This document shows, piece by piece, positions 14,397 to 57,858 of a stretch of DNA of 64,000 nucleotides. The position numbers and the translations under genes were made by a program. The notes beneath the pieces are model-generated. The model worked only from the letters and a program-made list of their open reading frames with translations, searched no databases and was not told the origin of the DNA. Position 1 is the first letter of the stretch. Each line of letters begins with the position of its first letter. The stretch lies in the sequence record OQ031495; one strand, given 5' to 3'. The DNA is from Escherichia phage MRostami-2023e.

Positions 14397-14425
14397 TGTA
14401 CAACCAAGGATGGTTGGAGTATAAT
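14397..14425 (+). promoter_or_regulatory. Early promoter with embedded hairpin (repeat copy 1 of 4)
   Basis: TGTACA, hairpin CAACCA-agga-TGGTTG, then GAGTATAAT (-10 at 14420-14425). Confidence 0.55.
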
Positions 14426-14451
14426 AAATTTTTCAACATGAGGAATATAAA

Positions 14452-15387
14452 ATGGCTTTTATTACACGTAAAGAACTTATCAAAGAATTTACCTCGAACG
14501 CATATACTCCAGGACCTAATCCTATCCGTATGCCTGTAAAGACTCCTGAAGAGATTGAGGAAGTCTGTTCATATTATGGGATTACTTCTCGTAAGTTTAC
14601 TCAATTTGAATGCGTTACTAACACACCCGTTAAAGAGTTCATTAAAAATGGTGAGTTCAGCCGTTTATTAGCCAAACAGAAACTTCGTAATTTTTGTATT
14701 GGCGGTGAAGGACAATATTTCGCTAAGCAGTTCCGGAATAACCTTAACAATCTGATGGCCATTGCTTCTCGTATTCGTCCTCAAGCAATTAACATGAAAC
14801 ATTTGAAATATACTTACGATAAGTTGGAAATCATGGTTATCAGTGAGAATGAGTTCACTCTTACGTATAAACCTAAGAATGATAACGTTGCTCGTGTATT
14901 TCACCAAGCGTTGGAAGTTTTAGGTGATAATATCCACCAGATTAAAGCAATTTATTCACGTGAGCTTAATATTATCAACCCCATCAAGAATAAGGGTCAT
15001 ATTGCTATCCAGGCTCGTGTATCTATTGGTAAAAAGGTTCCTGCGCCATGGTGGCACAAAGACTCTGAATACTATCAAAATCTTAAAAAGGAAAATGCAT
15101 TGTTTGAAGCATCGCTTACTGGAACCCCAATTGAACAGGCCGAAGTCCTAAGTGCTTATTCTACTTCTNNNNNNNNNNNNNNNNNNNNNNNNNNNAAACT
15201 AAAAGTTTCTAATGACCTTCTTCCGGCCGAAGATTACCATTACAATCAAATCAAGGCCACTATGGACCAACTGTCTGTTGAACTTGACAAAGCACAAGCT
15301 AAGCTTCGTGATGCTCAAAGTGTTGTAACGAATCTCCAGTTGCAGTATTCTAAACTTTTTAACGCAATGAATGCATTAAAATCATAA
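14452..15387 (+). CDS. Hypothetical protein (contains a 27-nt masked run)
   Basis: 311-aa ORF with SD GAGGA upstream. Confidence 0.5.
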   Translation: MAFITRKELIKEFTSNAYTPGPNPIRMPVKTPEEIEEVCSYYGITSRKFTQFECVTNTPVKEFIKNGEFSRLLAKQKLRNFCIGGEGQYFAKQFRNNLNNLMAIASRIRPQAINMKHLKYTYDKLEIMVISENEFTLTYKPKNDNVARVFHQALEVLGDNIHQIKAIYSRELNIINPIKNKGHIAIQARVSIGKKVPAPWWHKDSEYYQNLKKENALFEASLTGTPIEQAEVLSAYSTSXXXXXXXXXKLKVSNDLLPAEDYHYNQIKATMDQLSVELDKAQAKLRDAQSVVTNLQLQYSKLFNAMNALKS

Positions 15388-15391
15388 AATA

Positions 15392-15421
15392 GTTTACAAC
15401 CAAGGATGGTTGGAGTATAAT
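15392..15421 (+). promoter_or_regulatory. Early promoter with embedded hairpin (repeat copy 2 of 4)
   Basis: GTTTAC 15392-15397, CAACCA-agga-TGGTTG, TATAAT 15416-15421. Confidence 0.55.
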
Positions 15422-15449
15422 GAATCTATCTTAACGAGAGGAAAATATT

Positions 15450-16400
15450 ATGACACGTTCACATTACATTGAATACTTTGCAGGTCTTATCGCTAACGTT
15501 CACGCCCAACGTGCTTCTGGTGCACTAGGATTTGATGTTCCACACCGAGATGTAGTAAGTGGTATTCTTCGCGATTTTGGTACATACATAGGCCAAGAAA
15601 ATCATATCTGTAAAGATACTCAAAATGCGTATTCTCATTCGTTAGGGACGTTGCTTCAATGGTTCAAACGTTCTCGTTTATTATCTTCTACTGTAGCTCG
15701 CGATAACATTAAAAACTTTATGAAACCGAGCTTTATTAAATCTGTGACATCTAAAACTGATTTGGTTGAATTCACTATTGTTAATGATGTTAAAAAGACT
15801 CATTTGGCTGATTGGTTATCTACCATTCCTGAAACTAAATTTGCTGATAAATTTGCTTGTGAATTCAATAACCAAGTGAATATGCTTTTTAAACATTCTC
15901 GTAAATTATTCACAGGCGGCGATGATCGTACAAATAAAGTTCATGTTAAAGATTGGGTTACTGCAGTATTCAAACCAACCGGTAATGGTAACGCATCATT
16001 ATCAATTGATATCCAGGTTCCTTATTACTACTCACGTAATCTCGGTACCATGAAAGCCGAAGAAATTAATAAGCGCAACAAAACCATTCGTTCGCTGTCT
16101 TATAAACTTCGCATGATGTTAAGAATCATGGACGTGGTAGAAATGTATGATGAAACCGAAGATAATGGTTCAATGTTATACAGTTCTCGCATTCAAATTA
16201 AGTTGAAGAACCCTAACGAGTATAAGCCTAAGCCTATTAAAGAACCTAAAGTAGAAAAAGTTGATAACTTAAGAGAAGAACGCGAATATCTCAAATCTCG
16301 TCTGAAAGAAGTCGAAGCCCAGATTGCAGAACAAACTAAATCGTTAAAAGCTCTGAATGCGAAAGCGGATGGTTTACGAAATGCCATTGAGGTGTTATAA
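15450..16400 (+). CDS. Hypothetical protein with C-terminal coiled-coil-like tail
   Basis: 316-aa ORF, SD GAGAGG upstream. Confidence 0.55.
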   Translation: MTRSHYIEYFAGLIANVHAQRASGALGFDVPHRDVVSGILRDFGTYIGQENHICKDTQNAYSHSLGTLLQWFKRSRLLSSTVARDNIKNFMKPSFIKSVTSKTDLVEFTIVNDVKKTHLADWLSTIPETKFADKFACEFNNQVNMLFKHSRKLFTGGDDRTNKVHVKDWVTAVFKPTGNGNASLSIDIQVPYYYSRNLGTMKAEEINKRNKTIRSLSYKLRMMLRIMDVVEMYDETEDNGSMLYSSRIQIKLKNPNEYKPKPIKEPKVEKVDNLREEREYLKSRLKEVEAQIAEQTKSLKALNAKADGLRNAIEVL

Positions 16401-16705
16401 TGAAACTACGTCTTTTAGAGGATATTGATATGAGCACTAATCATGGCTTGGTTAAGTTTATTGACGATAGTTCAAAGATCGAATTTGTTCAGCGAGATAA
16501 AATCCACGGTGAAGAAGAGTTCGTTCCTCCGGCATGGAACGAAATAATGAAAATGGTTGAACGACGTGAAAATGCTGCCAAATCGGCAGCAAAACATCCA
16601 TGTCCGGAATGTGGAACTATCCAAGTCCAACTGGTTAACTGGACCAGTGATAACTTGAAATTGAAATGCCGTAAATGCTTCCACAAATTTGAGAGAACAT
16701 TATAA
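16400..16705 (+). CDS. Zinc-ribbon hypothetical protein
   Basis: CPECG...CRKC cysteine pairs; start overlaps upstream stop. Confidence 0.5.
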   Translation: MKLRLLEDIDMSTNHGLVKFIDDSSKIEFVQRDKIHGEEEFVPPAWNEIMKMVERRENAAKSAAKHPCPECGTIQVQLVNWTSDNLKLKCRKCFHKFERTL

Positions 16706-17118
16706 TGAGATATAGCCTTCGTTGTTTTATCGCAGCTTTAGTTTTTGCTATTATTCCATTCATTTGGAACAGCCAGAATACTTACATGGAAACTAAAGTA
16801 ATTCCTGTGGAGGTAGTGGAATTAATTTCAGGTCAATCTACAGGAAAATATTCTAAATTAGAATTTATTGCAGTTTATAAAGATGAGCAAGGACGAGTTT
16901 TTGACAGGCGTGTATCTCCATCATTTTATACGCTTCTGAATAAAGGTGATACGATAGCTATAGAAATTCGTGAGATGGATATCAAACAAACTACTAAAGA
17001 TAACTTGATTTGGTTCTTTGGTACAGTGTTGTTGGTTTCTATCTGTATCACAGGTTTTATTACATGTATTGTATTTGGCATTGCATATTTAATCGATGAA
17101 AGGAAAAATAATGTTTAA
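16705..17118 (+). CDS. Hypothetical membrane protein
   Basis: Hydrophobic N- and C-terminal segments. Confidence 0.5.
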   Translation: MRYSLRCFIAALVFAIIPFIWNSQNTYMETKVIPVEVVELISGQSTGKYSKLEFIAVYKDEQGRVFDRRVSPSFYTLLNKGDTIAIEIREMDIKQTTKDNLIWFFGTVLLVSICITGFITCIVFGIAYLIDERKNNV

Positions 17119-17374
17119 AGTGTACGGGTATGACTCTACTATTCATAAATGCATTTATTGTGATAATGCGAAACGATTGCTGGCTGTTAAGAAACAGCCG
17201 TTCGAATTCATTAATGTTATGCCAGAAAAAGGTGTTTTTGATGATGAGAAAATTGCTGAGCTTCTGGTTAAGCTTGGACGTGAATCACAAGTCGGATTGA
17301 CTATGCCTCAAGTGTTTGCTCCTGATGGAACTTCGATCGGTGGCTTTGACCAACTACGAGAATATTTTAAATGA
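17111..17374 (+). CDS. nrdC: Thioredoxin/glutaredoxin NrdC
   Basis: MFKVYGYDSTIHKCIYCDNAKRLL...LTMPQVFAPDG...FDQLREYFK closely matches T4 NrdC; CIYC active site; SD AGGAAA. Confidence 0.9.
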   Translation: MFKVYGYDSTIHKCIYCDNAKRLLAVKKQPFEFINVMPEKGVFDDEKIAELLVKLGRESQVGLTMPQVFAPDGTSIGGFDQLREYFK

Positions 17375-17727
17375 CATATTCATTAAATCTTAAAGATTTC
17401 CAAGATGTATACGAAGTTTGTGCCAATGAACTTGGTCCTGATGCTCCAACTATTATTGAAGTTTTAAATGTGCTCCCTTCATCATTAGCTTACGAAGCCA
17501 AATCATGGGGTTGGAACGACACTGTCGTTCGTGATGACCTTTACGTCCTGATGAACGATATGATGGTTAAAAAGGCAGAACCGGTTGCACCAATGGTTAC
17601 CATTACCGTTGAAGAATATAATCGCCTGCAAGCCATTGAAGAGCTTCTGTGGAATATTGAATGTGACCTGCCGTCAGGGCTAGAATCCTGGATTGATTAT
17701 GAAGAGCTCAATAAACTCCGGGGTTAA
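17371..17727 (+). CDS. Hypothetical protein
   Basis: 118-aa acidic ORF, start overlaps nrdC stop. Confidence 0.5.
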   Translation: MTYSLNLKDFQDVYEVCANELGPDAPTIIEVLNVLPSSLAYEAKSWGWNDTVVRDDLYVLMNDMMVKKAEPVAPMVTITVEEYNRLQAIEELLWNIECDLPSGLESWIDYEELNKLRG

Positions 17728-17776
17728 ACCGTGGTATTCTGCTCGTTGGGAGACTGTCGAGCCAGACGTTGAAACA

Positions 17777-17806
17777 GTTTACAACGACGAAGAAACGTGT
17801 TATGAT
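17777..17806 (+). promoter_or_regulatory. Early promoter
   Basis: GTTTAC 17777-17782, 18-bp spacer, TATGAT 17801-17806. Confidence 0.45.
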
Positions 17807-17855
17807 GAACCTTCAATAAATGAATTAATTGATATGGAAATGGGAAGAGATTATT

Positions 17856-18026
17856 ATGCAAGTTAAATTATTGTACCGTTTATTAAAAAATGGCAAACAT
17901 GATTGGTATTTGCTTATTAAAACCGATCCGAATTTTTTCTCTGGACAACCATTTACAGTTCGTCCTACTAAACGTCAGCTTCGCAAAGCTAAACGTTCTC
18001 ATCGTAACTTTTATAGAGAATATTGA
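17856..18026 (+). CDS. Small basic hypothetical protein
   Basis: RPTKRQLRKAKRSHR tail, shared with ORF 46429-46641. Confidence 0.4.
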   Translation: MQVKLLYRLLKNGKHDWYLLIKTDPNFFSGQPFTVRPTKRQLRKAKRSHRNFYREY

Positions 18027-18027
18027 T

Positions 18028-18441
18028 ATGAATATTTCTGAAACTCGCGGTAAATGGTTCAAGATTGTTAAAGAAGATGAAGAACTACAAGTCAAGTTTC
18101 CTGAATTAAAGAAAGATACGATCATCAAGGTAATTGGTACTACTACCGAAGATGGTTATGGCGACCATGGCATTATCGAAGTGATGTTGAACACAGGTGA
18201 GAAACTTTGCATCTATGACCGTGATACTTCTCTTTGGTGCTTCTGGGAATCCCATTCAATAGATGAACTCGAAGAAATTGACCAAGTAGTTTGTGATGGT
18301 GGACTTGGCGAATTCGAAGGTGAACGTATTTCTTATGCTTTAGCTAAATTAGCCGGACAAGAAAATAACGACGGCTATGAAGGTAACCTGATGCAAGCAG
18401 CCGCAGAATACATTGAATATTTAGAAAGACGTTTAAGTTAA
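18028..18441 (+). CDS. Hypothetical acidic protein
   Basis: 137-aa ORF MNISETRGKWFKIVKED... Confidence 0.5.
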   Translation: MNISETRGKWFKIVKEDEELQVKFPELKKDTIIKVIGTTTEDGYGDHGIIEVMLNTGEKLCIYDRDTSLWCFWESHSIDELEEIDQVVCDGGLGEFEGERISYALAKLAGQENNDGYEGNLMQAAAEYIEYLERRLS

Positions 18442-18640
18442 NNNNNNNNNNNNNNNNNNNNNNNNNNNNNNNNNNNNNNNNNNNNNNNNNNNNNNNNNNN
18501 NNNNNNNNNNNNNNNNNNNNNNNNNNNNNNNNNNNNNNNNNNNNNNNNNNNNNNNNNNNNNNNNNNNNNNNNNNNNNNNNNNNNNNNNNNNNNNNNNNNN
18601 NNNNNNNNNNNNNNNNNNNNNNNNNNTTAAGTTAATAAAT

Positions 18641-18665
18641 ACCCTTATCTATTTAAGGTAAGGGT
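18641..18665 (+). promoter_or_regulatory. Stem-loop over the gene 49 ribosome-binding region
   Basis: ACCCTTA / TAAGGGT inverted repeat ending 5 nt before the 49 start codon. Confidence 0.45.
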
Positions 18666-18670
18666 TTATC

Positions 18671-19144
18671 ATGTTATTATCAGGCGCAAAATATAAAGAA
18701 GAAAAACAAAAATTTTATGATGCACAGAACGGTAAGTGTCCTATTTGCCACCGTGAATTAGACCCTGATGTTCAAGGTAACCATCTTGACCACGACCATG
18801 AATTAAACGGGCCAAAAGCCGGTAGAGTTCGTGGATTACTCTGTAATCTGTGCAACGCAGCAGAAGGTCAAATGAAGCATAAGTTCAACCGTTCTGGTCT
18901 TAAAGGCCGTGATGTCGACTACCTAGAATGGCTTGAAGCTCTTCTCGCTTATTTGAAACAAGATTATTCTGATAATAATATCCATCCTAATTTTGTTCCA
19001 GACAAAACTAAAGAGTTCTCAAGACTAGGTAAAGAGGAAATGATGACCGAGATGCTTCAAAGAGGATTTGAATATAATGAATCAGATACTAAAACACAAT
19101 TAATAGCTTCATTCAAAAAGCAGCTTAGAAAGAGTTTAAAATGA
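18671..19144 (+). CDS. 49: Endonuclease VII (Holliday-junction resolvase)
   Basis: MLLSGAKYKEEKQKFYDAQNGKCPICHREL...HLDHDHELNGPKAGRVRGLLCNLCNAAEGQ... near-identical to T4 gp49. Confidence 0.92.
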   Translation: MLLSGAKYKEEKQKFYDAQNGKCPICHRELDPDVQGNHLDHDHELNGPKAGRVRGLLCNLCNAAEGQMKHKFNRSGLKGRDVDYLEWLEALLAYLKQDYSDNNIHPNFVPDKTKEFSRLGKEEMMTEMLQRGFEYNESDTKTQLIASFKKQLRKSLK

Positions 19145-20958
19145 AAATTGAAAAAGAAATTGAAGGATTAATTCATAAAACTAATAAAGACCTTTTAAAC
19201 GAGAATGCTAATAAAGATTCTCGTGTTTTTCCAACTCAACGGGACCTTATGGCTGGTATTGTGTCTAAGCACATTGCCAAAAATATGGTCCCGTCTTTTA
19301 TTATGAATGCGCATGAAAGCGGAATCATTCACATGCATGATATTGATTATTCTCCTGCTCTTCCATTTACTAATTGCTGTTTAGTCGATTTAAAGGGGAT
19401 GCTTGAGAATGGATTTAAATTAGGCAATGCTCAAATTGAAACGCCTAAATCTATTGGCGTTGCTACTGCAATTATGGCACAAATTACCGCACAAGTTGCT
19501 TCACACCAATATGGCGGAACTACATTTGCGAATGTCGATAAAGTTCTTTCTCCTTATGTTAAACGCACATACGCTAAACATATTGAGGACGCAGAAAAAT
19601 GGCAAATCGCTGATGCGTTGAATTATGCCCAATCTAAAACAGAAAAAGACGTATACGATGCATTCCAAGCTTATGAATATGAAGTAAATACTCTCTTTAG
19701 TTCAAACGGACAGACTCCTTTTGTAACAATTACATTTGGTACAGGAACCGACTGGACTGAACGAATGATTCAGAAAGCAATTCTTAAAAACCGCATTAAA
19801 GGCCTTGGTCGTGATGGAATAACTCCTATTTTCCCTAAGCTTGTTATGTTCGTTGAAGAAGGTGTTAATCTTTATAAAGACGATCCGAACTATGATATTA
19901 AGCAGCTTGCTTTAGAATGTGCAAGCAAAAGAATGTATCCTGACATCATTTCGGCTAAGAACAATAAAGCTATCACCGGCTCATCTATTCCTGTTTCTCC
20001 AATGGGTTGCCGTAGTTTCTTGAGCGTATGGAAAGATTCAACTGGCAATGAAATTCTTGATGGACGCAATAATCTTGGCGTTGTAACACTGAATCTTCCT
20101 CGTATTGCGTTAGATTCTTATATTGGAACACAATTCAATGAACAGAAATTTGCCGAATTGTTCAATGAACGAATGGACCTGTGTTTTGAAGCTTTGATGT
20201 GTAGAATTAGTTCCTTAAAAGGAGTTAAAGCGACTGTTGCTCCTATTCTTTACCAAGAAGGTGCATTTGGGGTTCGTCTTAAACCTGACGACGATATAAT
20301 TGAGTTATTTAAAAACGGTAGAAGTTCAGTGTCTTTAGGATACATCGGTATTCATGAATTGAATATTCTTGTCGGCCGTGATATTGGACAAGAAATTTTA
20401 ACTAAAATGAATGCTCATCTTAAACAGTGGACTGAAAGAACCGGTTTTGCTTTTAGCTTGTATTCTACTCCTGCTGAAAACCTGTGCTATCGCTTCTGTA
20501 AACTTGATACTGAAAAATATGGAAGTGTAAAAGATGTTACTGATAAAGGCTGGTACACTAACAGTTTCCATGTTTCAGTAGAAGAAAATATTACTCCGTT
20601 TGAAAAGATTTATCGCGAAGCCCCATATCATTTCATTTCGNNNNNNNNNNNNNNNNNNNNNNNNNNNNNNNNNNNNNNNNNNNNNNNNNNNNNNNNNNNN
20701 NNNNNNNNNNNNNNNNNNNNNNNNNNNNNNNNNNNNNNNNNNNNNNNNNNNNNNNNNNNNNNNNNNNNNNNNNNNNNNNNNNNNNNNNNNNNNNNNNNNN
20801 NNNNNNNNNNNNNATTTGTTTGTTCTATGTGTGGAGAAACTGATCCTAAAAAGATGAACACAATAAGAAGAACGTGTGGTTATCTTGGAAACCCGAACGA
20901 ACGCGGATTTAATCTAGGCAAAAATAAAGAAATCATGCATAGGGTTAAACACCAATGA
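19141..20958 (+). CDS. nrdD: Anaerobic ribonucleoside-triphosphate reductase (class III; 173 nt masked inside)
   Basis: 605 aa; NCCLVDLKGML and C-terminal RRTCGYLG glycyl-radical motif with zinc-ribbon cysteines. Confidence 0.9.
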   Translation: MKIEKEIEGLIHKTNKDLLNENANKDSRVFPTQRDLMAGIVSKHIAKNMVPSFIMNAHESGIIHMHDIDYSPALPFTNCCLVDLKGMLENGFKLGNAQIETPKSIGVATAIMAQITAQVASHQYGGTTFANVDKVLSPYVKRTYAKHIEDAEKWQIADALNYAQSKTEKDVYDAFQAYEYEVNTLFSSNGQTPFVTITFGTGTDWTERMIQKAILKNRIKGLGRDGITPIFPKLVMFVEEGVNLYKDDPNYDIKQLALECASKRMYPDIISAKNNKAITGSSIPVSPMGCRSFLSVWKDSTGNEILDGRNNLGVVTLNLPRIALDSYIGTQFNEQKFAELFNERMDLCFEALMCRISSLKGVKATVAPILYQEGAFGVRLKPDDDIIELFKNGRSSVSLGYIGIHELNILVGRDIGQEILTKMNAHLKQWTERTGFAFSLYSTPAENLCYRFCKLDTEKYGSVKDVTDKGWYTNSFHVSVEENITPFEKIYREAPYHFISXXXXXXXXXXXXXXXXXXXXXXXXXXXXXXXXXXXXXXXXXXXXXXXXXXXXXXXXXXFVCSMCGETDPKKMNTIRRTCGYLGNPNERGFNLGKNKEIMHRVKHQ

Positions 20959-21425
20959 ATTATGATAGAATTTATCCTTGTGATTTTGTGAATGGCCCTG
21001 GTTGCAGGGTCGTTCTTTTCGTTACAGGTTGTTTGCATAAATGTGAAGGGTGTTATAATAAATCAACATGGAATGCTAGAAATGGTATTCCATTCACTGG
21101 TGAAACACTAAAACAATTAATTGAAATTTTGAATAATGATTAAATAGAAGGATTAACTATAACTGGAGGAGACCCTCTCTATCCTGATAACCGAGATGTT
21201 ATTCATTGCATTGTTCAAACTATTAAAAATCTTTATCCCAATAAAAGCATTTGGTTGTGGACAGGATATAAGTTTGAAGATATTAAACAACTAGAAATGC
21301 TTAAATATGTTGATGTTATTATTGATGGGAAGTATGAGAAAAATCTTCCGACCAAAAAGATATGGCGAGGATCAGATAATCAGCGACTTTGGTCAAATAC
21401 CGATGGGGTGTGGAAACATGATTAA
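20955..21425 (+). pseudogene. nrdG: Anaerobic RNR activase (radical SAM) interrupted by in-frame TAA at 21141-21143
   Basis: MNYDRIYPCDFVNGPGCRVVLFVTGCLHKCEGCYN... then TAA; same frame continues IEGLTITGGDPLYP...WLWTGYKFEDIKQLEMLKYVDVIIDGKYEKNLP...WKHD, matching the rest of T4 NrdG. Confidence 0.6.
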
Positions 21426-21535
21426 ATTGAATTATATTATGGATACTATAAATGATATGATTTTTCGTTTTGGTCCAGAATTTTATTCCCAATATAGTTT
21501 AGTGCTTATCAATGCTTAGTTAATTAAGGGTAAAT

Positions 21536-21751
21536 ATGTATAAATTTCGTAAAGGTTTAGCTGATTTTCTTACAACTGTAACGTTCTTTTTGTTTATGGC
21601 AGTTGGAGCTATTTTTCTTATTCCTTTTACTGGAGTATTTTTCGTGATTAGTTTAATTTCTCCAGAAAAGGGTTTATCCTCCAGCGAATTCAATGAACGT
21701 TTGGACAAAATTACTAATAAACTGAATTCTGTTCTTGATAAAAAGGCTTAA
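21536..21751 (+). CDS. Small membrane protein
   Basis: Two hydrophobic helices. Confidence 0.45.
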   Translation: MYKFRKGLADFLTTVTFFLFMAVGAIFLIPFTGVFFVISLISPEKGLSSSEFNERLDKITNKLNSVLDKKA

Positions 21752-21753
21752 TT

Positions 21754-22071
21754 ATGATTAGTTTTGAGCGGTATGTGGTAGAGAGTTGGAAAGGTTTTGA
21801 TATGTTCGGTAATGACTATTATTTCTATGAATGTAGTCTAAATCCTAGTTTTTGGGCTGGACGTGAACGAGATCTCGAAGAAATTAATGCTCGTGCCGAA
21901 TTGTTAGGTGAATTGCCTACGGTTTATTTTACCTTTGATGAGTCTGGATTTGTTATCCAGGTTTATTTTCCTGAAGAAAACTCTGGTGAGGATTCTGTTA
22001 ATCCTCCTTATTGGGCTTACCAAGGAATTATTTCTCGTGGAACAAAACTCGAACTTAAAGAACAAGATTGA
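21754..22071 (+). CDS. Hypothetical protein
   Basis: 105-aa ORF. Confidence 0.5.
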   Translation: MISFERYVVESWKGFDMFGNDYYFYECSLNPSFWAGRERDLEEINARAELLGELPTVYFTFDESGFVIQVYFPEENSGEDSVNPPYWAYQGIISRGTKLELKEQD

Positions 22072-23897: not shown

Positions 23898-23932
23898 TAT
23901 ACAAACTCTTGAGAGATGAGTATAATTCTCTC
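23898..23932 (+). promoter_or_regulatory. Early promoter with inverted repeat around the -10
   Basis: GAGAGA / TCTCTC flanking TATAAT 23921-23926. Confidence 0.4.
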
Positions 23933-32963: not shown

Positions 32964-32967
32964 AGCA

Positions 32968-32997
32968 ATGGGACTTCGGTCCCATTTGGAGTATAAT
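32968..32997 (+). promoter_or_regulatory. UUCG hairpin followed by -10-like element upstream of gene 43
   Basis: ATGGGAC ttcg GTCCCAT then GGAGTATAAT 32988-32997. Confidence 0.4.
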
Positions 32998-45409: not shown

Positions 45410-45428
45410 GGAGACTTCGGTCTCCTTT
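45410..45428 (+). terminator. UUCG hairpin (terminator-like)
   Basis: GGAGAC ttcg GTCTCC followed by TTT. Confidence 0.4.
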
Positions 45429-45867: not shown

Positions 45868-45915
45868 TTTACTTCTCCAGTAGTTGTGTTATTATAGACC
45901 TATCAACTACTGGAG
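45868..45915 (+). promoter_or_regulatory. Early promoter / stem-loop cassette
   Basis: GTTTAC 45868-45873; TCCAGTAGTTG / CAACTACTGGA inverted repeat flanking TATTATAGACC. Confidence 0.55.
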
Positions 45916-45921
45916 AACAAA

Positions 45922-47383: not shown

Positions 47384-47413
47384 TGTTTACATTATAGATG
47401 GACTATAGTATAG
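47384..47413 (+). promoter_or_regulatory. Early promoter / stem-loop cassette
   Basis: GTTTAC 47384-47389; GGACTAT / ATAGTCC inverted repeat around TATAGT. Confidence 0.5.
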
Positions 47414-47443
47414 TAGTCCTATCAAATCAACTAAGGAGTTAAA

Positions 47444-50419: not shown

Positions 50420-50941
50420 ATGGCACACTTTAACGAATGTTCACAACTTATTTCTGGTGTTGATAAAGCAGAAGAAGCTTATTTTAATGCTCTGATTCAC
50501 GAAGATAAAGACCCACTGCAGGTAATGCTTGATATGCAGAAATCTTTACAGGTTCGTCTGGCAAATGACAAGCCTGAACATAACAAACATCCTGATGAAT
50601 TGGCTACCGCTGGTGATGTTGTTGATTGGCTGCGTAATCAGAAAGATTATATTGATGATGAATTCCGCGAACTGCTGACTTCTCTTGGTGGTATGAGCAA
50701 TGGCGAAAAAGCCGCCAGCAGTGTATGGAAGCCGTGGAAGGCACAACATGCTGAATATCGAAATCGTCGTATCGATGAACTGTCTCCTGAAGACCAGCTT
50801 GAAATTAAATTCGAGATGATTGATATCCTCCACTTTGTTCTGAATATGTTCCAAGGTCTGGGTCTTTCCGCTGAAGAAATCTTTAAACTTTACTACTTGA
50901 AAAACCAACACAACTTTGAACGTCAGGATAATGGTTACTGA
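50420..50941 (+). CDS. 56: dCTP/dCDP pyrophosphatase gp56 (MazG-like)
   Basis: MAHFNECSQLISGVDKAEE...DPLQVMLDMQ...DVVDWLRNQKDYIDDEFRELLTSLGG...EIFKLYYLKN matches T4 gp56. Confidence 0.9.
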   Translation: MAHFNECSQLISGVDKAEEAYFNALIHEDKDPLQVMLDMQKSLQVRLANDKPEHNKHPDELATAGDVVDWLRNQKDYIDDEFRELLTSLGGMSNGEKAASSVWKPWKAQHAEYRNRRIDELSPEDQLEIKFEMIDILHFVLNMFQGLGLSAEEIFKLYYLKNQHNFERQDNGY

Positions 50942-50986
50942 TTAAGTTATAAATACACCTGTAATTAAACAACAAAGGAGTTAATT

Positions 50987-51223
50987 ATGGGTGGTTATGT
51001 AAACATCAAAACCTTTACGCATCCTGCTGGTGAAGGTAAAGAAGTTAAAGGTATGGAAGTTTCTGTACCGTTTGAGATTTATTCAAACGAACATCGGATT
51101 GCAGATTCTCATTACCAAATCTTTCCATCAGAAAAGGCAGCTTATTCTACTGTAGTTTCTGATGCAGCTGACTGGAAAACTAAGAACGCTGCAATGTTTA
51201 CCCCTACACCAGTAAGTGGTTAA
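50987..51223 (+). CDS. soc: Small outer capsid protein Soc
   Basis: GYVNIKTF...HYQIFPSEKAAYSTV resembles T4 Soc; 78 aa; strong terminator follows. Confidence 0.75.
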   Translation: MGGYVNIKTFTHPAGEGKEVKGMEVSVPFEIYSNEHRIADSHYQIFPSEKAAYSTVVSDAADWKTKNAAMFTPTPVSG

Positions 51224-51232
51224 ATAATTTAA

Positions 51233-51261
51233 GGAATCCTTCGGGATTCCTTTTTTTTTTT
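51233..51261 (+). terminator. Rho-independent terminator
   Basis: GGAATCC ttcg GGATTCC followed by 11 T. Confidence 0.8.
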
Positions 51262-51270
51262 GTTTCTACA

Positions 51271-51300
51271 GTTTACAACCACTAAAAACTGTGTTAAGAT
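51271..51300 (+). promoter_or_regulatory. Early promoter
   Basis: GTTTAC 51271-51276, 18-bp spacer, TAAGAT 51295-51300. Confidence 0.5.
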
Positions 51301-51328
51301 ATTCTTACTTACTCAAGAGGAGAACAAT

Positions 51329-51556
51329 ATGTTAAATCGTTGGATTAAACCTAATAACACATTAGGTGCTTTGATTGCTCAAGAAGTTTCGTTGAAATAC
51401 GGTCTTGGATATTACGATGATGTAGTCGTACACTCATTTATGATGGATGGTGAAGACGTCAAATTTAATGCCGAAATCCGTTGGGATGATGGTGGTGTTC
51501 GTTTTGTTCGAGGAACAATTAATGCTTACGATACTGAAGAAGTTATTTGCTGTTAA
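51329..51556 (+). CDS. Hypothetical protein
   Basis: 75-aa ORF with SD AGAGGAGAA. Confidence 0.45.
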   Translation: MLNRWIKPNNTLGALIAQEVSLKYGLGYYDDVVVHSFMMDGEDVKFNAEIRWDDGGVRFVRGTINAYDTEEVICC

Positions 51557-51569
51557 ACCAGGCGAAGGT

Positions 51570-51770
51570 ATGATGCCTATTCCTGATACACACGAAAAAA
51601 GTTGGGAATACATTGGTGACGGAATGATGGAAGAAGTTGTTCGTCCAAAAACAAAACAGGTTAATGCTTCAAGCTCTTCAAGTTATGATCATTCATACGT
51701 ATCGTCTTGGCCTGGTGATTCTGGGTCAAGTTATTCTGATTGTGGTTCAAGCTCAGGGAGCTGCGAATGA
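51570..51770 (+). CDS. Hypothetical Ser-rich protein
   Basis: 66-aa ORF with Ser-rich C-terminus. Confidence 0.4.
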   Translation: MMPIPDTHEKSWEYIGDGMMEEVVRPKTKQVNASSSSSYDHSYVSSWPGDSGSSYSDCGSSSGSCE

Positions 51771-51946
51771 ACAAGATAGTTAAATGGTTTAAAAGCTGGG
51801 ACGATGGTGTCGGTCCAGAAGATTGGCTGGATGTTCTTGAAGAGAATATGGCTAAAGAATTCCAGAAACACGAAGAGAAGCTCGTCGAAGATGAAGGCGA
51901 ACGTATTGTAAAACTTTATATGGGTGAACCATCGAGGAAATTATAA
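51767..51946 (+). CDS. Hypothetical protein
   Basis: 59-aa ORF overlapping upstream stop. Confidence 0.4.
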   Translation: MNKIVKWFKSWDDGVGPEDWLDVLEENMAKEFQKHEEKLVEDEGERIVKLYMGEPSRKL

Positions 51947-52410
51947 TGGATGCTATGTTATTTAAAATGTACTTGCTTGAAGCCAAGTCGTTTAAACATA
52001 TACCAGTAGAAGATAAGACTCCACTAGAAATAGCTATTCTCATTAACAAAAGTCTAAATAATCCGCAATATATCGTAGAAGAATTCTGCAAATTGCAGAT
52101 TCCTAAAGGTTACAAAATTCGTGTAGAGCGAGTTGGAGCTATTACTCATTCTAAAAATTCTCCGTTTAGTCTTGAAGAAGGCATAAAGGACTTAGGTTAT
52201 GAATCTACGGAAAATGCCGTTTATGTGAATCCAGAAAAGCGTTTAGACCTGTTTGAAAAGCGAGACCATAAGTATTTTGCCAAAAAATACTTTATTACAT
52301 CATTAGCAGATTTAACCCATTTGCAACGAGCTATTTGGAAATTTTTTAAGACAAAAGGTGTAGCGCTAGAAACATTCTCCGAGCAGCCTAGTTTTTATTT
52401 AGGTGAATAA
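51946..52410 (+). CDS. Hypothetical protein
   Basis: 154-aa ORF. Confidence 0.5.
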   Translation: MDAMLFKMYLLEAKSFKHIPVEDKTPLEIAILINKSLNNPQYIVEEFCKLQIPKGYKIRVERVGAITHSKNSPFSLEEGIKDLGYESTENAVYVNPEKRLDLFEKRDHKYFAKKYFITSLADLTHLQRAIWKFFKTKGVALETFSEQPSFYLGE

Positions 52411-52411
52411 T

Positions 52412-52591
52412 ATGGACCTTATGAGTATGTTTGACGAGCCTGAAGTTGAGGCTCCTAAAGTGCATCGTAGTGAACTTGTTGATGAACTAGATAGTATTAT
52501 ACAACGACACGGCTTTAGTTTACCTGTTGAAGCCCTGAAAGACCTTGCCTCTTATTATGACGACCCTCCACCATGGAGTCCTTGGAAATGA
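52412..52591 (+). CDS. Hypothetical acidic protein
   Basis: 59-aa ORF. Confidence 0.4.
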   Translation: MDLMSMFDEPEVEAPKVHRSELVDELDSIIQRHGFSLPVEALKDLASYYDDPPPWSPWK

Positions 52592-52752
52592 AAGAGAAAT
52601 TTAAAGAGAAATTCTTACTAGAAATCAAGGAAAAAGACTTTGAGACATGGTATCGAATGGTGAAAGGGTTGACATTGCTTTTTAAAGCATCGTTATTCAT
52701 GTTAGAACAACCTGGCCCTGATGGACCTTTAGTAGGAAAGCTTAAAAAGTAG
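52588..52752 (+). CDS. Small hypothetical protein
   Basis: 54-aa ORF overlapping upstream stop; below track cutoff. Confidence 0.3.
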   Translation: MKEKFKEKFLLEIKEKDFETWYRMVKGLTLLFKASLFMLEQPGPDGPLVGKLKK

Positions 52753-52780
52753 TTTACATTCCCTCCTCTCGTGTTATGAT
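52753..52780 (+). promoter_or_regulatory. Early promoter
   Basis: GTTTAC 52753-52758, 16-bp spacer, TATGAT 52775-52780. Confidence 0.5.
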
Positions 52781-52807
52781 AGGCTTATCTTTAAATGGAG
52801 GTCTATC

Positions 52808-53389
52808 ATGACATGTCAATCTGAACTTCAAGAACGTGAATACCTAACAAATCTGATTGATAGCAAATTCACCCGCCAAGAACAAAACATTCTCTGGGCT
52901 TGCACCGATTCTAAGGAAGACCCGGATTTCCACTATGAATTAGACCATCTTGTTCGTAAGCATATGACTTCTACAGTACCAGTAGAACTCTACCGTGGTG
53001 TAACTCCAGAAGAAGTAGAACGTCTTTCCCTTCTTTCTGTTGGATGCCATTGGTCTCCTGGGCGAGTAACATCGTTCACAACTGATTTCAGTACAGCTCG
53101 TCAATTCTCTGGGAGATGGGAATATCAGACGTACACTATTCTTAGTCTCAGGAATGCTCCATTCATTTTTGATTACTACCAAAACATGATTAACATTGTA
53201 CTCGCCGGAAAGAACCCTAAGCATGTTATGGAAGAAACGCGTGTTGACGTCCTAGATATGATTGAATCTGAACAAGAGTACATGGTCTCAGGCATCTCTC
53301 GATTTGAGATTGTGGAAATTGAAGACTTAGAATATGACCCTTTATCTCGATTATACAAAATCATTCATTTGAAAATGTTGAATTTTTAG
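52808..53389 (+). CDS. ADP-ribosyltransferase, ModA/ModB-like (paralog 1)
   Basis: R-S-E triad candidates: LYRGV, FSTARQF, EQEYMVSG; 193 aa. Confidence 0.6.
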   Translation: MTCQSELQEREYLTNLIDSKFTRQEQNILWACTDSKEDPDFHYELDHLVRKHMTSTVPVELYRGVTPEEVERLSLLSVGCHWSPGRVTSFTTDFSTARQFSGRWEYQTYTILSLRNAPFIFDYYQNMINIVLAGKNPKHVMEETRVDVLDMIESEQEYMVSGISRFEIVEIEDLEYDPLSRLYKIIHLKMLNF

Positions 53390-53418
53390 TGTACAAACTC
53401 TTTAGATGATGATACTAT
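53390..53418 (+). promoter_or_regulatory. Early promoter
   Basis: TGTACA 53390-53395, 17-bp spacer, TACTAT 53413-53418. Confidence 0.5.
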
Positions 53419-53446
53419 ACCTTTATCAACCACAGGAGAAACCTAA

Positions 53447-54055
53447 ATGTTTATGCCGTATAACGAGTGTGAAATTGAAGAAATGGTTCGTCGTGCTCAA
53501 AACCCCGAATATCAAGATGTATTGCAGTACGAAATTGATAGTCAATTCAACGATAATGAACAAAGCATCCTTTGGCAGTGTATGGAAAACAAGCCAGACT
53601 GTATTCAACAGGAGTTAAGTTCAATCGTTCGTAGAAATTGGACGTCTTCTGTTCCTGAGACAATGTATCGTGGAATCTCTAAGAAAACTATGGCCACACT
53701 TGATGATAAAGGCATTGGTAGTATTATTAAATTTGACAGAGTAATGAGCTTCAGCCCAGTGTTCGGTGTAGCACGTAACTTTGCTTCGTATAATTTTTAC
53801 GGAACATTTAATATGTTCTGCATCAAAGATGCACCATTTGCTTTCAACTTCCGTGAACATATGCTTAACATGATTCTGGCTGCGCCATCTTGTGAGTTCA
53901 ATGGAGCTTTCCCTGAAGCGACAAGACGGTCTAATGCTAGACTTATATCTGACGAATGTGAATTTATGCTCCCTATAGGGACTACACTGCGTGTAGATTC
54001 TATTATTCAAGATGGACGTTATACAATCTGGAATCTGTCTATTGTCAGTTACTGA
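53447..54055 (+). CDS. ADP-ribosyltransferase, ModA/ModB-like (paralog 2)
   Basis: MYRGI, MSFSPVFGVARNF, DECEFMLP; colinear with 52808-53389; 202 aa. Confidence 0.6.
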   Translation: MFMPYNECEIEEMVRRAQNPEYQDVLQYEIDSQFNDNEQSILWQCMENKPDCIQQELSSIVRRNWTSSVPETMYRGISKKTMATLDDKGIGSIIKFDRVMSFSPVFGVARNFASYNFYGTFNMFCIKDAPFAFNFREHMLNMILAAPSCEFNGAFPEATRRSNARLISDECEFMLPIGTTLRVDSIIQDGRYTIWNLSIVSY

Positions 54056-54089
54056 CTGAATTGGAATAACCGGATGGAACTCAGAACCA

Positions 54090-54113
54090 TTATAACACAT
54101 AAAAAATTAAAGC
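54090..54113 (-). promoter_or_regulatory. Candidate minus-strand middle-type promoter (antisense to the upstream ADP-ribosyltransferase gene)
   Basis: On the reverse strand GCTTTA (54113-54108), 12-bp spacer, TATAAT (54095-54090); 54076-54096 is the reverse complement of the start region at 13358-13378. Confidence 0.3.
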
Positions 54114-54130
54114 ATTTTATGAAAAAAGAG

Positions 54131-54159
54131 TGTACACTACCTGAGGGCATGATATTATA
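54131..54159 (+). promoter_or_regulatory. Early promoter
   Basis: TGTACA 54131-54136, 17-bp spacer, TATTAT 54154-54159. Confidence 0.45.
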
Positions 54160-54208
54160 AGCTTATCAGCTAAATGACCTTAACGTCCGTAAGACAGAGG
54201 AAAATATT

Positions 54209-54955
54209 ATGTTATCAAATAATAAAATTAACAAAATCAATCGTCGTCTTGACCACACCAGAGCTTCTGCGAAGAGACGCTCTAAGGATTTTAACTTAGA
54301 CTTTAATTACCTTAAAAACATTCTTGATCAAAAGGTCTGCGCTTACTCAGGTGAATCTTTTAATAACTCTGTTGAAGGTGAGAAATTATCCTTAGAACGT
54401 TTTAATAATGATATAGGCTACATTAAAGGTAATGTCATCCCAGTTAAGAAAAAATATAACACGGCTCGTTCTGATTTAACATTAGAAGAACTTATTGAGA
54501 AACGTGATGCCATTGCAAGACGTATCGCTAATCCTTCTGCCCGTAAAGTAGAGAAACTTAATCTCGACGAGAAGAAATGGGCCCAAATTAAAAAGGTTTA
54601 TGGCACTATTTTAAAAATCCGAGCAAAACGTGAAAATCGTGTTAAGCATATGGCGAACATGATGAAAAATCAACCTTTATCTAACGAATCTAAACTTAGA
54701 ATTGTTGCTTTGAAAGCACGCATTAATGGCTCACATCAAGCAGAAGGCCATGAACTTACTAAACTCAATGTTCTTCTTAAAGGCTCTGACTGGAAAACTA
54801 AAACTAAATTAACTGACGCTGAATCGCTTTTCGATACATATGATAAAGTTATCCAAGGTCTGCAACGTTTTGAAAAGATTGGTTTCATTGGTAAATTAAA
54901 ATTGAAACGTGGCTTACCACTTAGCGCATCATTATTCCAACTGATTAAAGGTTAA
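54209..54955 (+). CDS. Hypothetical basic protein at the T4 srd position
   Basis: 248 aa; N-terminal CAYSG...LERFNNDIGYIKGNVIPV is loosely HNH-like but lacks the catalytic His. Confidence 0.45.
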   Translation: MLSNNKINKINRRLDHTRASAKRRSKDFNLDFNYLKNILDQKVCAYSGESFNNSVEGEKLSLERFNNDIGYIKGNVIPVKKKYNTARSDLTLEELIEKRDAIARRIANPSARKVEKLNLDEKKWAQIKKVYGTILKIRAKRENRVKHMANMMKNQPLSNESKLRIVALKARINGSHQAEGHELTKLNVLLKGSDWKTKTKLTDAESLFDTYDKVIQGLQRFEKIGFIGKLKLKRGLPLSASLFQLIKG

Positions 54956-54957
54956 TT

Positions 54958-55269
54958 ATGGTTTATGTATATGCAATAGTTTATCGAGATATGGAAGGAT
55001 TTACTGTCCCGGTTCCACTTGATGAGCATCGTCCTGCAGTATTTTTTAGAAAGGATATTGCAGATAAAGTTTTCGATACTTTGAAAACACAGTATAAAAC
55101 AGATTTAAAAATGGGAGTTCTAAGAATGGTCGAAACTCCGCGTAAGTTCTGGTTTAATAAGCTCGAAATGAAACACATTAAACTAGATGCGGAGACGCAA
55201 AGGTTGTATCAACGAATCCTGGACACAGGCCGTATTGTTAGTATTCCAATTGCAGGGACTTTACGATGA
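54958..55269 (+). CDS. Hypothetical protein
   Basis: 103-aa ORF. Confidence 0.5.
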   Translation: MVYVYAIVYRDMEGFTVPVPLDEHRPAVFFRKDIADKVFDTLKTQYKTDLKMGVLRMVETPRKFWFNKLEMKHIKLDAETQRLYQRILDTGRIVSIPIAGTLR

Positions 55270-56579
55270 CATTTGATGATTTGACTGAAGGCCAGAAAAA
55301 CGCCTTCAACGTTGTTATGAAAGCTATTAAAGAAAAGAAACATCACGTAACTATTAATGGGCCTGCTGGTACAGGTAAAACAACCCTTACTAGATTCATC
55401 GTTGAAGCTCTTATTTCTGCCGGAGAATCAGGTATTATTTTAGCAGCCCCTACACATGCTGCTAAAAAGGTTCTAAGCAAACTTGCAGGTCAAGAAGCAT
55501 CGACTATTCATAGCATTCTTAAAATCAACCCAACTACATACGAAGAAAACGTATTGTTTGAACAGAAAAAGGTTCCCGACTTAGCCTTGTGTCGTGTACT
55601 GTTATTTGATGAAGCGTCAATGTGCGACCGTTCTCTGTTTAAAATAATGTTAGCTAGTATCCCTAAATGGTGTACAGTAATTGGAATCGGCGACCGATGC
55701 CAAATTCGTCCGGTAGACCCAGGCGAATCAACTGCGTATCTAAGTCCTTTCTTCACTCACAAAGACTTCGTGCAATGCAACCTTACAGAAGTTAAACGTA
55801 GCAATGCACCAATTATTGATGTTGCGACCGATATTCGTAATGGCAAATGGATTTACGATAAAGTAGTTGATGGACATGGTGTTCATGGATATACAGACCT
55901 TAAATCGTATATGATGAACTATTTTAACGTCGTTAAAACTCCTGAAGACCTTTTCGAAAATCGAATGATGGCATTCACAAATAAGTCGGTGGACAAGTTG
56001 AATTCAATTATTCGCCGAAAACTTCTTGAAACAGAAAAACCATTTATTAAAGACGAAGTCATTGTTCTACAAGAGCCGTTTACTAAGACATATAAGCTAG
56101 ATGGTAAAAATATGACTGAAATGCTTTTCAATAATGGGCAATTCGTTCGTATTCGAGATGCTGTAGAAACGTCTACATTCGTTAAAGCACGTGGTGTTTC
56201 AGGCGAATATATGATACGATACTGGAATCTTACAGTAGAAACATATGGTGATGATGAAGAATATATCCGAGAAGATATAAAGGTTATTTCTTCTGAAGAA
56301 GAGCTTTATAAATTCAATTTGTTTTTGGCTAAGACCGCAGAAACATACAAATTCTGGAATAAAGGTGGTAAAGCTCCATGGAGCGAATTCTGGGATGCTA
56401 AACGTATGTTCACTAAGGTGAAGGCACTACCGGTATCAACCTTCCATAAGGCCCAGGGTATGTCTGTTGACACTGCCTTTGTTTATACACCGTGTATCCA
56501 TTATGCCGATTCAGAATTAGCTAAACAGCTATTGTATGTCGGCACAACTCGTGGTCGTTTTGACGTCCATTTTATTTGA
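55266..56579 (+). CDS. dda: DNA helicase Dda (SF1B)
   Basis: MTFDDLTEGQKNAFNVVMKAIKEKKHHVTINGPAGTGKTTL... matches T4 Dda. Confidence 0.92.
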   Translation: MTFDDLTEGQKNAFNVVMKAIKEKKHHVTINGPAGTGKTTLTRFIVEALISAGESGIILAAPTHAAKKVLSKLAGQEASTIHSILKINPTTYEENVLFEQKKVPDLALCRVLLFDEASMCDRSLFKIMLASIPKWCTVIGIGDRCQIRPVDPGESTAYLSPFFTHKDFVQCNLTEVKRSNAPIIDVATDIRNGKWIYDKVVDGHGVHGYTDLKSYMMNYFNVVKTPEDLFENRMMAFTNKSVDKLNSIIRRKLLETEKPFIKDEVIVLQEPFTKTYKLDGKNMTEMLFNNGQFVRIRDAVETSTFVKARGVSGEYMIRYWNLTVETYGDDEEYIREDIKVISSEEELYKFNLFLAKTAETYKFWNKGGKAPWSEFWDAKRMFTKVKALPVSTFHKAQGMSVDTAFVYTPCIHYADSELAKQLLYVGTTRGRFDVHFI

Positions 56580-56588
56580 GAGAAAATT

Positions 56589-57266
56589 ATGAGCACTGAT
56601 GTTATTATAGATTTTGAAACATTCGGCAATACATCAAAAGCGGCTGTTATTGACCTTGCGGTTATTGCATATAATTCCGACCCTGAAGTTGTTGAATCAT
56701 TTGAAGAACTTGTTCAACGTGGTAAGCGAATTAAATTTAATTTAGCTTCTCAGAAAGGGAAGCGAGTTTTCGCTAAATCCACTATGAAATGGTGGAAAGA
56801 ACAATCGGCTGAAGCACGTAAAAACTTGGCCCCGTCTGAAGACGATGTCACTACGCTTGAAGGCATTAAAATCTTTTTAGATTATTGTCGAGCTAATAAA
56901 GTTGACCAATGGAAATCACAGATGTGGTGCCGTGGTATGAGCTTTGACTTCCCGATATTGGTCGATTTGATTCGTGACCTCTATCGTGATGAAGGTGTTC
57001 TTGAACCAGAGATTGATACTGATAAATTAGAACCGGTTAAATTCTGGGCTCAACGCGATATTCGTACGGCAATCGAAGCTTACTCGTTGACACGAGGATT
57101 AAGTATGTGTCCATTACCGATGGGTACGCTAAAAGGATTCGTTGCCCATGATAGTATTCATGATTGTGCTAAAGATATTTTGATGTTAAAATATGCTCAA
57201 CGTTATGCGCTTGGCCTTGAAGATGTCCCTGAGAATCCTGACCCGTTAAGTGTAAAACAGCGATAA
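56589..57266 (+). CDS. dexA: Exonuclease A (DEDD family)
   Basis: VIIDFETFGN exonuclease motif I; adjacent to dda as in T4. Confidence 0.8.
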   Translation: MSTDVIIDFETFGNTSKAAVIDLAVIAYNSDPEVVESFEELVQRGKRIKFNLASQKGKRVFAKSTMKWWKEQSAEARKNLAPSEDDVTTLEGIKIFLDYCRANKVDQWKSQMWCRGMSFDFPILVDLIRDLYRDEGVLEPEIDTDKLEPVKFWAQRDIRTAIEAYSLTRGLSMCPLPMGTLKGFVAHDSIHDCAKDILMLKYAQRYALGLEDVPENPDPLSVKQR

Positions 57267-57271
57267 AATCA

Positions 57272-57301
57272 GTTTACAACCAAGGATGGTTGGAGTATAA
57301 T
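57272..57301 (+). promoter_or_regulatory. Early promoter with embedded hairpin (repeat copy 3 of 4)
   Basis: GTTTAC 57272-57277, CAACCA-agga-TGGTTG, TATAAT 57296-57301. Confidence 0.55.
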
Positions 57302-57331
57302 CTTTCTATCTTAACCAAACTGGAAAACATT

Positions 57332-57826
57332 ATGAATATCAATACTACGGCTACTTACATCCTGAAAGATGAAAAACAAATTAACTGGTACGGTGCTTCA
57401 GTGCGAGCTTATGAAAAGTTTTGTGAAATTTTAGGTGCCACTCAAGGTAATAGTTTCACTATTGTTAACTTCATCAAACAAGCTGAAGGCCCTTGGTTAT
57501 TCTTAGAAATTAAAAATTCATATGGTACAATTTCTACTACCGCCCTTCCAAGCACCGACTTTGAACTGTTGATTGAAGAAGTAGAACCCGTTAAAGACAT
57601 CTGTATTGATATGGATATCGCTTGTATGTACGGTACTCTGATTAAGCCTATTGAGCCTACTGATTTGTTGTGTAAAGCTGTTTCAATTCGACGTCCGTTC
57701 GCAGGTCCAGTGAGTGGATGGGTAACTGATCAGTGGATTGAAGACGGTGTTGAACTTCTGAACGTTGTTCATGCAGGTGATTTTAGTGTAGTTCCACGTA
57801 GTGCTGTGGTTAATATTCTAAATTAA
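57332..57826 (+). CDS. Hypothetical protein, tandem paralog family member 1
   Basis: C-terminal GWVTDQWIEDGVELLNVVHAGDFSVVP shared with 57889 and 58363 ORFs. Confidence 0.5.
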   Translation: MNINTTATYILKDEKQINWYGASVRAYEKFCEILGATQGNSFTIVNFIKQAEGPWLFLEIKNSYGTISTTALPSTDFELLIEEVEPVKDICIDMDIACMYGTLIKPIEPTDLLCKAVSIRRPFAGPVSGWVTDQWIEDGVELLNVVHAGDFSVVPRSAVVNILN

Positions 57827-57829
57827 TGT

Positions 57830-57858
57830 TGTACATCCAAGGATGGATGGAGTATAAT
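57830..57858 (+). promoter_or_regulatory. Early promoter with embedded hairpin (repeat copy 4, compensatory variant)
   Basis: TGTACA, hairpin CATCCA-agga-TGGATG (both arms changed, pairing preserved), TATAAT 57853-57858. Confidence 0.55.

Follow-up and report, generated by a model that had tools for sequence, protein, structure and literature searches.

Repeated early-promoter hairpin elements of a T4-family phage as probable cassettes joining promoter, hairpin and recombination substrate

The 64,000-nucleotide stretch of Escherichia phage MRostami-2023e analysed here (record OQ031495; hereafter the window) carries almost all of its genes on the + strand, the early-gene strand, and contains four copies of a short element in which a promoter-like sequence encloses a hairpin. 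Escherichia phage vB_EQ1 matches the window at 100% identity, and many other Mosigvirus (RB69-like, T4-family) phages match it at 97-98%; gene names are taken from the RB69 annotation. Copies 1 and 2 flank nrdC.5, between nrdC.6 and nrdC.3, and copies 3 and 4, 42 kb away, flank a motB.1-like open reading frame (ORF) between dexA and motB (Table 1). The earlier note, made from the sequence alone, had listed four copies of a 26-bp promoter-hairpin element in front of two unrelated gene sets. The four copies are real: the exact 26-mer ACAACCAAGGATGGTTGGAGTATAAT occurs on the + strand at 14400-14425, 15396-15421 and 57276-57301, and the fourth copy, ACATCCAAGGATGGATGGAGTATAAT, has two mismatches and occupies 57833-57858. 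The window holds no further match to the 26-mer with up to three mismatches, 100 dinucleotide-preserving shuffles yield none, and the whole vB_EQ1 genome has the element at these four places only. The starts listed in the note (14397, 15392, 57272 and 57830) are 3-4 nt too low for the 26-mer and correspond in three of the four copies to the start of the -35 hexamer, whereas the end at 57858 is exact.

The separation into unrelated gene sets stands as well. BLASTP detects no similarity among the products of nrdC.6, nrdC.5 and nrdC.3 or between them and the motB group, in which the motB.1-like ORF, motB and the next ORF (57332-58782) are tandem paralogs with a common C-terminal domain (E = 2e-9 to 4e-31). 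Tandem gene duplication as the origin of the copies was rejected on this lack of similarity, the paralogy of the motB group notwithstanding. The counterpart of the motB.1-like ORF in RB69 is split in two ORFs of 132 and 29 amino acids (aa).

Each intergenic gap is 55-65 bp long and wholly occupied by the element. The stop codon of the upstream gene is followed after 0-8 nt by the -35 hexamer T(T/G)TACA, a 17-nt spacer, TATAAT, and 26-30 nt that contain a Shine-Dalgarno sequence of the GAGG/GGAA type and lead to the ATG. The spacer contains a 6-bp stem with the 4-nt loop AGGA, and a GGAG whose first G is the last base of the stem abuts the -10 box. Identity between copies is highest between -35 and -10 and falls off outside, and copies 2 and 3 are 90% identical over 50 nt despite their separation of 42 kb. 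A fifth, compact relative lies further upstream in the nrdC region, with its -35-like hexamer only ~11 nt from the -10 box; it has orthologs in RB69, JS98, VR20 and IME08.

The element was proposed to be a -35/-10 promoter, and the proposal finds support: against T(T/G)TACA-17 nt-TATAAT each of the four copies agrees at 10-11 of 12 positions, and among the sigma70 matches of its neighbourhood every copy ranks first or shares the first rank. The A+T content of the 24 nt upstream of -35 is 67-79% against 63% in the window, a modest excess in a segment that overlaps the end of the upstream ORF. The early-promoter list of 2006 (Nolan et al. 2006, PMC1524935, Additional file 3), which consists of hidden Markov model predictions, contains all four orthologous RB69 sites. 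The T4-type early promoters of that work resemble the element in the GTTTAC-type -35, the 17-nt spacer, TATAAT and the A-rich upstream region; the promoter alone was modelled there, and the spacer hairpin, its covariation and a role as recombination breakpoint are not noted. The T4 counterpart of copy 4 is the motB promoter in the motB.1/motB spacer, for which in vivo primer-extension stops have been published (Durand et al. 2006, PMC1702504, Figure 5 legend). In T4 this spacer (T4 7141-7291) contains GTTTACA-N17-TATAAT, an active-looking promoter whose -10 is enclosed by a hairpin GGGACC...GGTCCC. The GenBank and RefSeq records of T4 list no promoter features, and the literature yielded no usable genome-wide start-site maps for T4 or RB69. 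From the consensus, the published RB69 prediction and the experimentally seen T4 motB promoter we infer that each copy is a sigma70-type early promoter.

The two changes in copy 4, A to T at 57836 and T to A at 57847, affect both members of a single stem pair and are compensatory, as had been claimed: by sequence and by fold, the stem CAACCA/TGGTTG becomes CATCCA/TGGATG. The chance that two random substitutions in the 26-mer hit one of the six pairs and keep complementarity is about 0.006. The earlier note took this one pair as an argument for selection on the stem-loop and proposed comparison across related genomes as a check; in that comparison the stem covaries across four genera, so the single compensated pair gains cross-genus backing. 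Elements were gathered by similarity or orthologous position and not by pairing, which gives an unbiased set of ten. In this set 95% of cells are paired and four of the six pairs change on both sides, none of 500 shuffles reaches the covariation score, and slid controls pair at 13-47%; a set of 14 sequences gives the same picture, with 92.9% of cells paired. The motif CAAGGA is invariant across the elements, and one stem position takes five standard pair types (U-A, A-U, C-G, G-C and G-U). The covariation shows that the hairpin pairs.

The stem reads CAACCA/TGGTTG in Mosigvirus, CATCCA/TGGATG in Mosigvirus copy 4 and at the nrdC locus of Dhakavirus IME08, CATCC..GGATG with the loop AAGGAC in RB69 copy 4 and in JS98, CTTCCA/TGGAGG in Gaprivervirus VR20, Yersinia phage P8 and one metagenome contig, CAGCCA/TGGTTG in one metagenome contig, and AGCCA/TGGCT and CCACA/TGTGG in T4. 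The compensated allele is common to NBG1, RB69 and the Dhakaviruses IME08 and JS98, at the nrdC locus in the latter two; judged by this distribution, it is old and widely shared and not a recent event in this genome. The distance from loop to -10 differs by 4-6 nt in the T4 and JS98 relatives, and hairpin and promoter are thus separable modules. The hairpin alone folds at -6.9/-7.3 kcal/mol (z = -2.9/-2.7). Rfam has no match at gathering score in the whole window, and none on the elements at E <= 1 in 57150-57950, which covers copies 3 and 4. The minimum free energy fold of copy 3 pairs the -35 region with the leader over a long range; this pairing was rejected, being broken in the RB69 and NBG1 orthologs.

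A hairpin devoid of function could retain its palindrome if promoter selection and gene conversion kept the copies alike and templated (quasipalindrome, strand-switch) mutation copied a change in one arm as the complementary change into the other, with no selection on pairing. Such mutation was reportedly first described in T4, by Ripley. The signs of conversion between copies, the short and thermodynamically modest stem and the absence of a terminator signature agree with this explanation. We nonetheless consider it unlikely, since pairing is kept over at least six distinct stems in four genera around an invariant loop, sense-strand G.U variants are tolerated, and early promoters across the genome are enriched in embedded hairpins of unrelated sequence; without selection, a 6-bp palindrome would moreover be expected to decay over the divergence of T4 and RB69.

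The inverted repeat is placed precisely between -35 and -10, the classic operator position, and genes of the MotB family lie downstream of copies 3 and 4. A dimeric DNA-binding protein, MotB-like or a host factor, might accordingly bind the spacer repeat and shut the promoter off, and the symmetric change in copy 4 would preserve a symmetric site. The distribution of conservation argues otherwise: the invariant CAAGGA and the adjacent pairs are asymmetric, differing from their reverse complement, whereas the symmetric arms vary, down to the stem position with its five pair types, and covary with complementarity kept. Two of the variants are sense-strand G.T wobbles, which for the symmetry of a site amount to A.C mismatches, the hairpin moves by 4-6 nt relative to both -10 and -35 in relatives, and other early promoters in the window have unrelated hairpins. 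An operator of a dimeric repressor was rejected on the asymmetric core and the covarying arms, and we regard it as highly improbable.

The ORFs enclosed by the copies are polymorphic among related phages, for which a GenBank phage collection and one metagenome scan were the sources. nrdC.5 is absent from 21 of 153 matching phage records, including p000v, G2469, WFK, AV109-118, FL18 and F2, and one hybrid element lies exactly at each junction. The motB.1-like ORF is absent from at least six isolates (PTK, VIPECOMC06, ST2, AV115, AV118 and S143_2), again with one hybrid element each at the junction. Two metagenome contigs, L017 and L012, likewise carry a single hybrid element: the order in L017 is nrdC.6 end, copy 1 left flank, copy 2 right flank and nrdC.3 start, and in L012 dexA end, copy 3 left flank, copy 4 right flank and motB. 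The isolates show the same junctions as single uninterrupted matches, and on inspection of the sequences the switch point lies inside the shared core. Hybrid elements total at least 27 isolate records besides the two contigs. Their position exactly at the ORF-less junctions indicates that the copies act as recombination breakpoints, and these comparative data show a role as recombination substrate. The identical tract shared by copies 2 and 3 measures 31 nt in the window and 48 nt in RB69, a pattern that indicates gene conversion between the nrdC and motB loci. A scan of IMG/VR with a degenerate-stem pattern gave a single match, in a metagenome-assembled genome of a giant virus, which was taken as chance.

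Table 1. Positions of the elements and of other features in the window
Feature	Position	Strand	-35	Stem arms	Loop	-10	Genes and content	Correspondence
Copy 1	14397..14425	+	TGTACA 14397-14402	14401-14406/14411-14416	AGGA 14407-14410	TATAAT 14420-14425	nrdC.6 (stop 14394-14396) / nrdC.5 (ATG 14452); GGAG 14416-14419	RB69 Pe:52042
Copy 2	15393..15421	+	TTTACA 15393-15398	15397-15402/15407-15412	15403-15406	15416-15421	nrdC.5 (stop 15385-15387) / nrdC.3 (ATG 15450)	RB69 Pe:51019; 'promoter' annotation in phage NBG1
Copy 3	57273..57301	+	TTTACA 57273-57278	57277-57282/57287-57292	57283-57286	57296-57301	dexA (stop 57264-57266) / motB.1-like ORF (ATG 57332)	RB69 Pe:8947; 'promoter' annotation in NBG1
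Copy 4	57830..57858	+	TGTACA	CATCCA/TGGATG 57834-57839/57844-57849	57840-57843	57853-57858	motB.1-like ORF (stop 57824-57826) / motB (ATG 57889)	RB69 Pe:8387; NBG1 and IME08 carry the same allele
Fifth, compact relative	13343..13365	+		ACCC/GGGT 13346-13349/13356-13359	AAGGAC	13360-13365	between nrdC.8 and nrdC.6; CTTTAC-CC AAGGAC GGGT-TATAAT	
nrdC.5-like ORF	14452..15387	+					311 aa; between copies 1 and 2; contains masked N run 15169-15195	
motB.1-like ORF	57332..57826	+					164 aa; motB paralog; between copies 3 and 4	
regB, listed ORF	3977-4711						runs through a masked N stretch	
Second promoter-hairpin family	4202-4246, 45873-45917, 58793-58837; weaker 7859-7905							
Hairpins straddling -10	8584-8609, 12762-12789, 23911-23932, 47400-47419							
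Hairpin at the regA/43 junction	32966-32997						directly past the regA stop, upstream of gene 43	
Terminator-like hairpin	45410-45428						between gene 41 and the -35 of the next early promoter (45434)	
Masked N runs	1680-2119, 3983-4184, 6057-6318, 6463-6470, 8191-8530, 15169-15195, 18442-18626, 20641-20813							

The copies belong to a known class, the promoter-early stem-loop (PeSL) cassettes (Arbiol et al. 2010, PMC2839356; Comeau et al. 2014, PMC4122927), described for the pairs RB49/phi1, T4/PST and KVP40/nt-1 and not for Mosigvirus. They share with PeSLs the sigma70-like early promoter with AT-rich upstream sequence, the stem-loop between -35 and -10 or over the -10, the downstream Shine-Dalgarno sequence and ATG of a small gene, and the intergenic placement in hyperplastic regions; like PeSLs, they recur in the genome and border ORF indels between close relatives. 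The stem-loops of T4/PST differ in being drawn just upstream of the promoter, and those of RB49 in their polyG/polyC stems, one of which, when tested, cut reporter expression about as a strong terminator does. The Mosigvirus elements have instead a short mixed stem and an invariant AAGGA loop, and lack a terminator signature.

Placed between -35 and -10, the hairpin precedes the start of transcription and is therefore absent from the RNA of its own promoter; it can form only in read-through RNA or in single-stranded DNA. Its position directly past the upstream stop codon would suit a rho-independent terminator or attenuator of transcription from the upstream cassette, the function proposed for the PeSLs of RB49/phi1 on the strength of one reporter test of an RB49 stem-loop (PMC2839356). 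The stem here has 6 bp with three G-C pairs at -7 kcal/mol, is followed by GAGUAUAAU with no U run, differs from the polyG/polyC tracts of the tested stem-loop and is missed by a scan for terminators. A weak stem with no U tract led us to reject termination as the main function; we think it improbable in that capacity.

Each copy is most probably a PeSL-type cassette of a T4-family phage that unites promoter, hairpin and recombination substrate. Unmodified host sigma70 RNA polymerase would initiate ~7 nt past TATAAT immediately after infection and produce an mRNA with a 20-25 nt leader encoding the small downstream early gene. Transcription of the hairpin would require polymerase to read through from the upstream gene; in such RNA it would fold 4-15 nt past the upstream stop codon and mark the 3' boundary of the upstream message, most likely as a signal for RNA end-protection, processing or weak attenuation that uncouples neighbouring cassettes. 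The near-identical direct-repeat cores of 27-31 bp serve as substrates of homologous recombination, which deletes or inserts the intervening ORF and homogenises copies 42 kb apart.

Several observations weigh against this account. The hairpin is weak: within ~70 nt of context the fold does not surpass that of shuffles (z -0.9 to -1.5), and copies 3 and 4 favour alternative pairings there. The absence of a U tract and the negative terminator scan leave the terminator role of PeSLs unsupported for this subfamily. The ORF polymorphisms can be read as deletion or insertion alike, and the longest identical tract that copies 3 and 4 offer for a crossover is only ~11 bp. Promoter activity and read-through in this phage are, finally, what we infer.

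Morons of lambdoid phages, whose G+C content is unlike that of the host phage, are thought to arrive via illegitimate recombination. The cassettes resemble them in being small accessory ORFs, each equipped with a promoter of its own and a boundary signal downstream, that come and go as units, but differ in sharing the composition of the phage and recombining via the repeated promoter element; lambdoid morons have been contrasted with T4-like ORFs before (PMC1524935). The PeSL design and the promoter predictions at the RB69 orthologs were already known. New here are the subfamily with a conserved loop, the covariation evidence, the isolate-level evidence of recombination and the resemblance of the element to a RegB site.

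This resemblance lies in the 3' half of the element, which in all four copies is GGAGUAUAAU, with A at positions 6 and 8. Starting from the last base of the stem, GGAG-UAUAAU is closely similar to the RegB/S1 cleavage site GGAGUAUAAAA, the minimal RegB/S1 substrate of T4 motB (Durand et al. 2006, PMC1702504), which we located in the T4 motB.1/motB spacer. RegB/S1 sites consist of a single-stranded GGAG and a following 7-nt A-rich, C-free stretch, with the consensus GGAGAAUAAAA (PMC1702504). GGAGUAUAAU matches 9 of the first 10 positions of the T4 motB site, which lies in the same motB.1/motB spacer as copy 4, and stands in a phage that encodes RegB (PF10715, E = 1.5e-68 in the window); it differs in that the motif of the element lies upstream of its own start and hence would occur in read-through RNA only. 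Past the T4 promoter, a second -10-like sequence, GGAGTATAAAA, is the model RegB substrate and has the look of a relic left by duplication of the promoter's 3' half. The start of regB in the window is probably the ATG at 4253, within the listed ORF, and the long hairpin at 4202-4246 has the GGAG Shine-Dalgarno sequence of this ATG in its 3' arm.

We tentatively raise, as a possibility of rather low probability suggested by motif similarity, that the hairpin with GGAGUAUAAU is not a terminator but serves both as the -10 region and as a programmed site of RNA processing. RegB/S1 would cut GG^AG one base past the stem in read-through early transcripts, leaving the upstream message with a protective 3' hairpin and detaching the downstream cistron, for which its own promoter would be the sole source of expression; RegB, ribosomal protein S1 or the 30S subunit would recognise the invariant AAGGA loop. 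The details of the site count against such processing: RegB needs single-stranded RNA, but the first G of GGAG is the outermost base of the stem and paired, and positions 10-11 are off the RegB consensus, copy 1 alone having A at position 11 and copy 3 having C there. In T4, 28 of 30 intergenic GGAU resist RegB (PMC1702504), which also argues against cleavage inside the GGAU of the loop, a variant that was rejected. Were the processing real, its logic would extend to the hairpin and GGAGTATAAT at the regA/43 junction, and it would explain why the model RegB substrate of T4 in motB looks like a relic -10 box.

Hairpins accompany other early promoters of the window. A hairpin lies within the promoter core or extends across it in eight of the 11 intergenic early promoters, and the mean z is -1.96 against -0.21 in coding controls (p = 2e-4); such an arrangement is the published PeSL design. 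A second, much stronger promoter-hairpin family has a 14-bp stem in which the spacer, UUCUCCUCUAGUUG, just past GTTTAC, pairs with the downstream Shine-Dalgarno region, CAACUAGAGGAGAA. Its folds reach -21 to -24 kcal/mol (z -3.6 to -5.6), its copies differ by compensatory changes, and one copy lies upstream of regB and one upstream of motB.2. Since the stem pairs the Shine-Dalgarno region, the ribosome-binding site would be sequestered in read-through RNA and free in RNA from the own promoter. Further hairpins, unrelated in sequence, straddle the -10 (for example AGGTCTATA...TATAGACCT) and correspond to the PeSL type 'overlapping the -10'. At the regA/43 junction, an 8-bp hairpin with a UUCG loop (AATGGGAC TTCG GTCCCATT) is followed by TGGAGTATAATAAG; the arrangement of hairpin and GGAGTATAAT is that of the elements, but with no recognisable -35, and may represent either a RegB-type site or a terminator combined with a -10. 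The terminator-like GGAGAC TTCG GTCTCC, followed by TTT, past gene 41 represents a PeSL whose stem-loop precedes the promoter.

The eight masked N runs of the window total 1637 bases, and none touches the four elements. A match to the Rfam family Y_RNA inside the motB.1-like ORF (57481-57574) is below threshold, at 27 bits against a gathering score of 38 (E = 0.004), and is probably chance.

These findings add a defined subfamily, of Mosigvirus, Dhakavirus and Gaprivervirus, to the PeSL concept, which has so far been based on three phage pairs. They also bring to it new types of evidence: covariation for constraint on the stem, and, at the population level, loss and gain of ORFs with crossover inside the element in dozens of isolates. 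The label 'terminator' does not appear to fit every PeSL. The link between the 3' half of the element and a characterised RegB site yields a testable idea of how tandem early cassettes may be insulated in T4-like phages, and the short repeats are predictable points of deletion and rearrangement in therapeutic phages of this kind.

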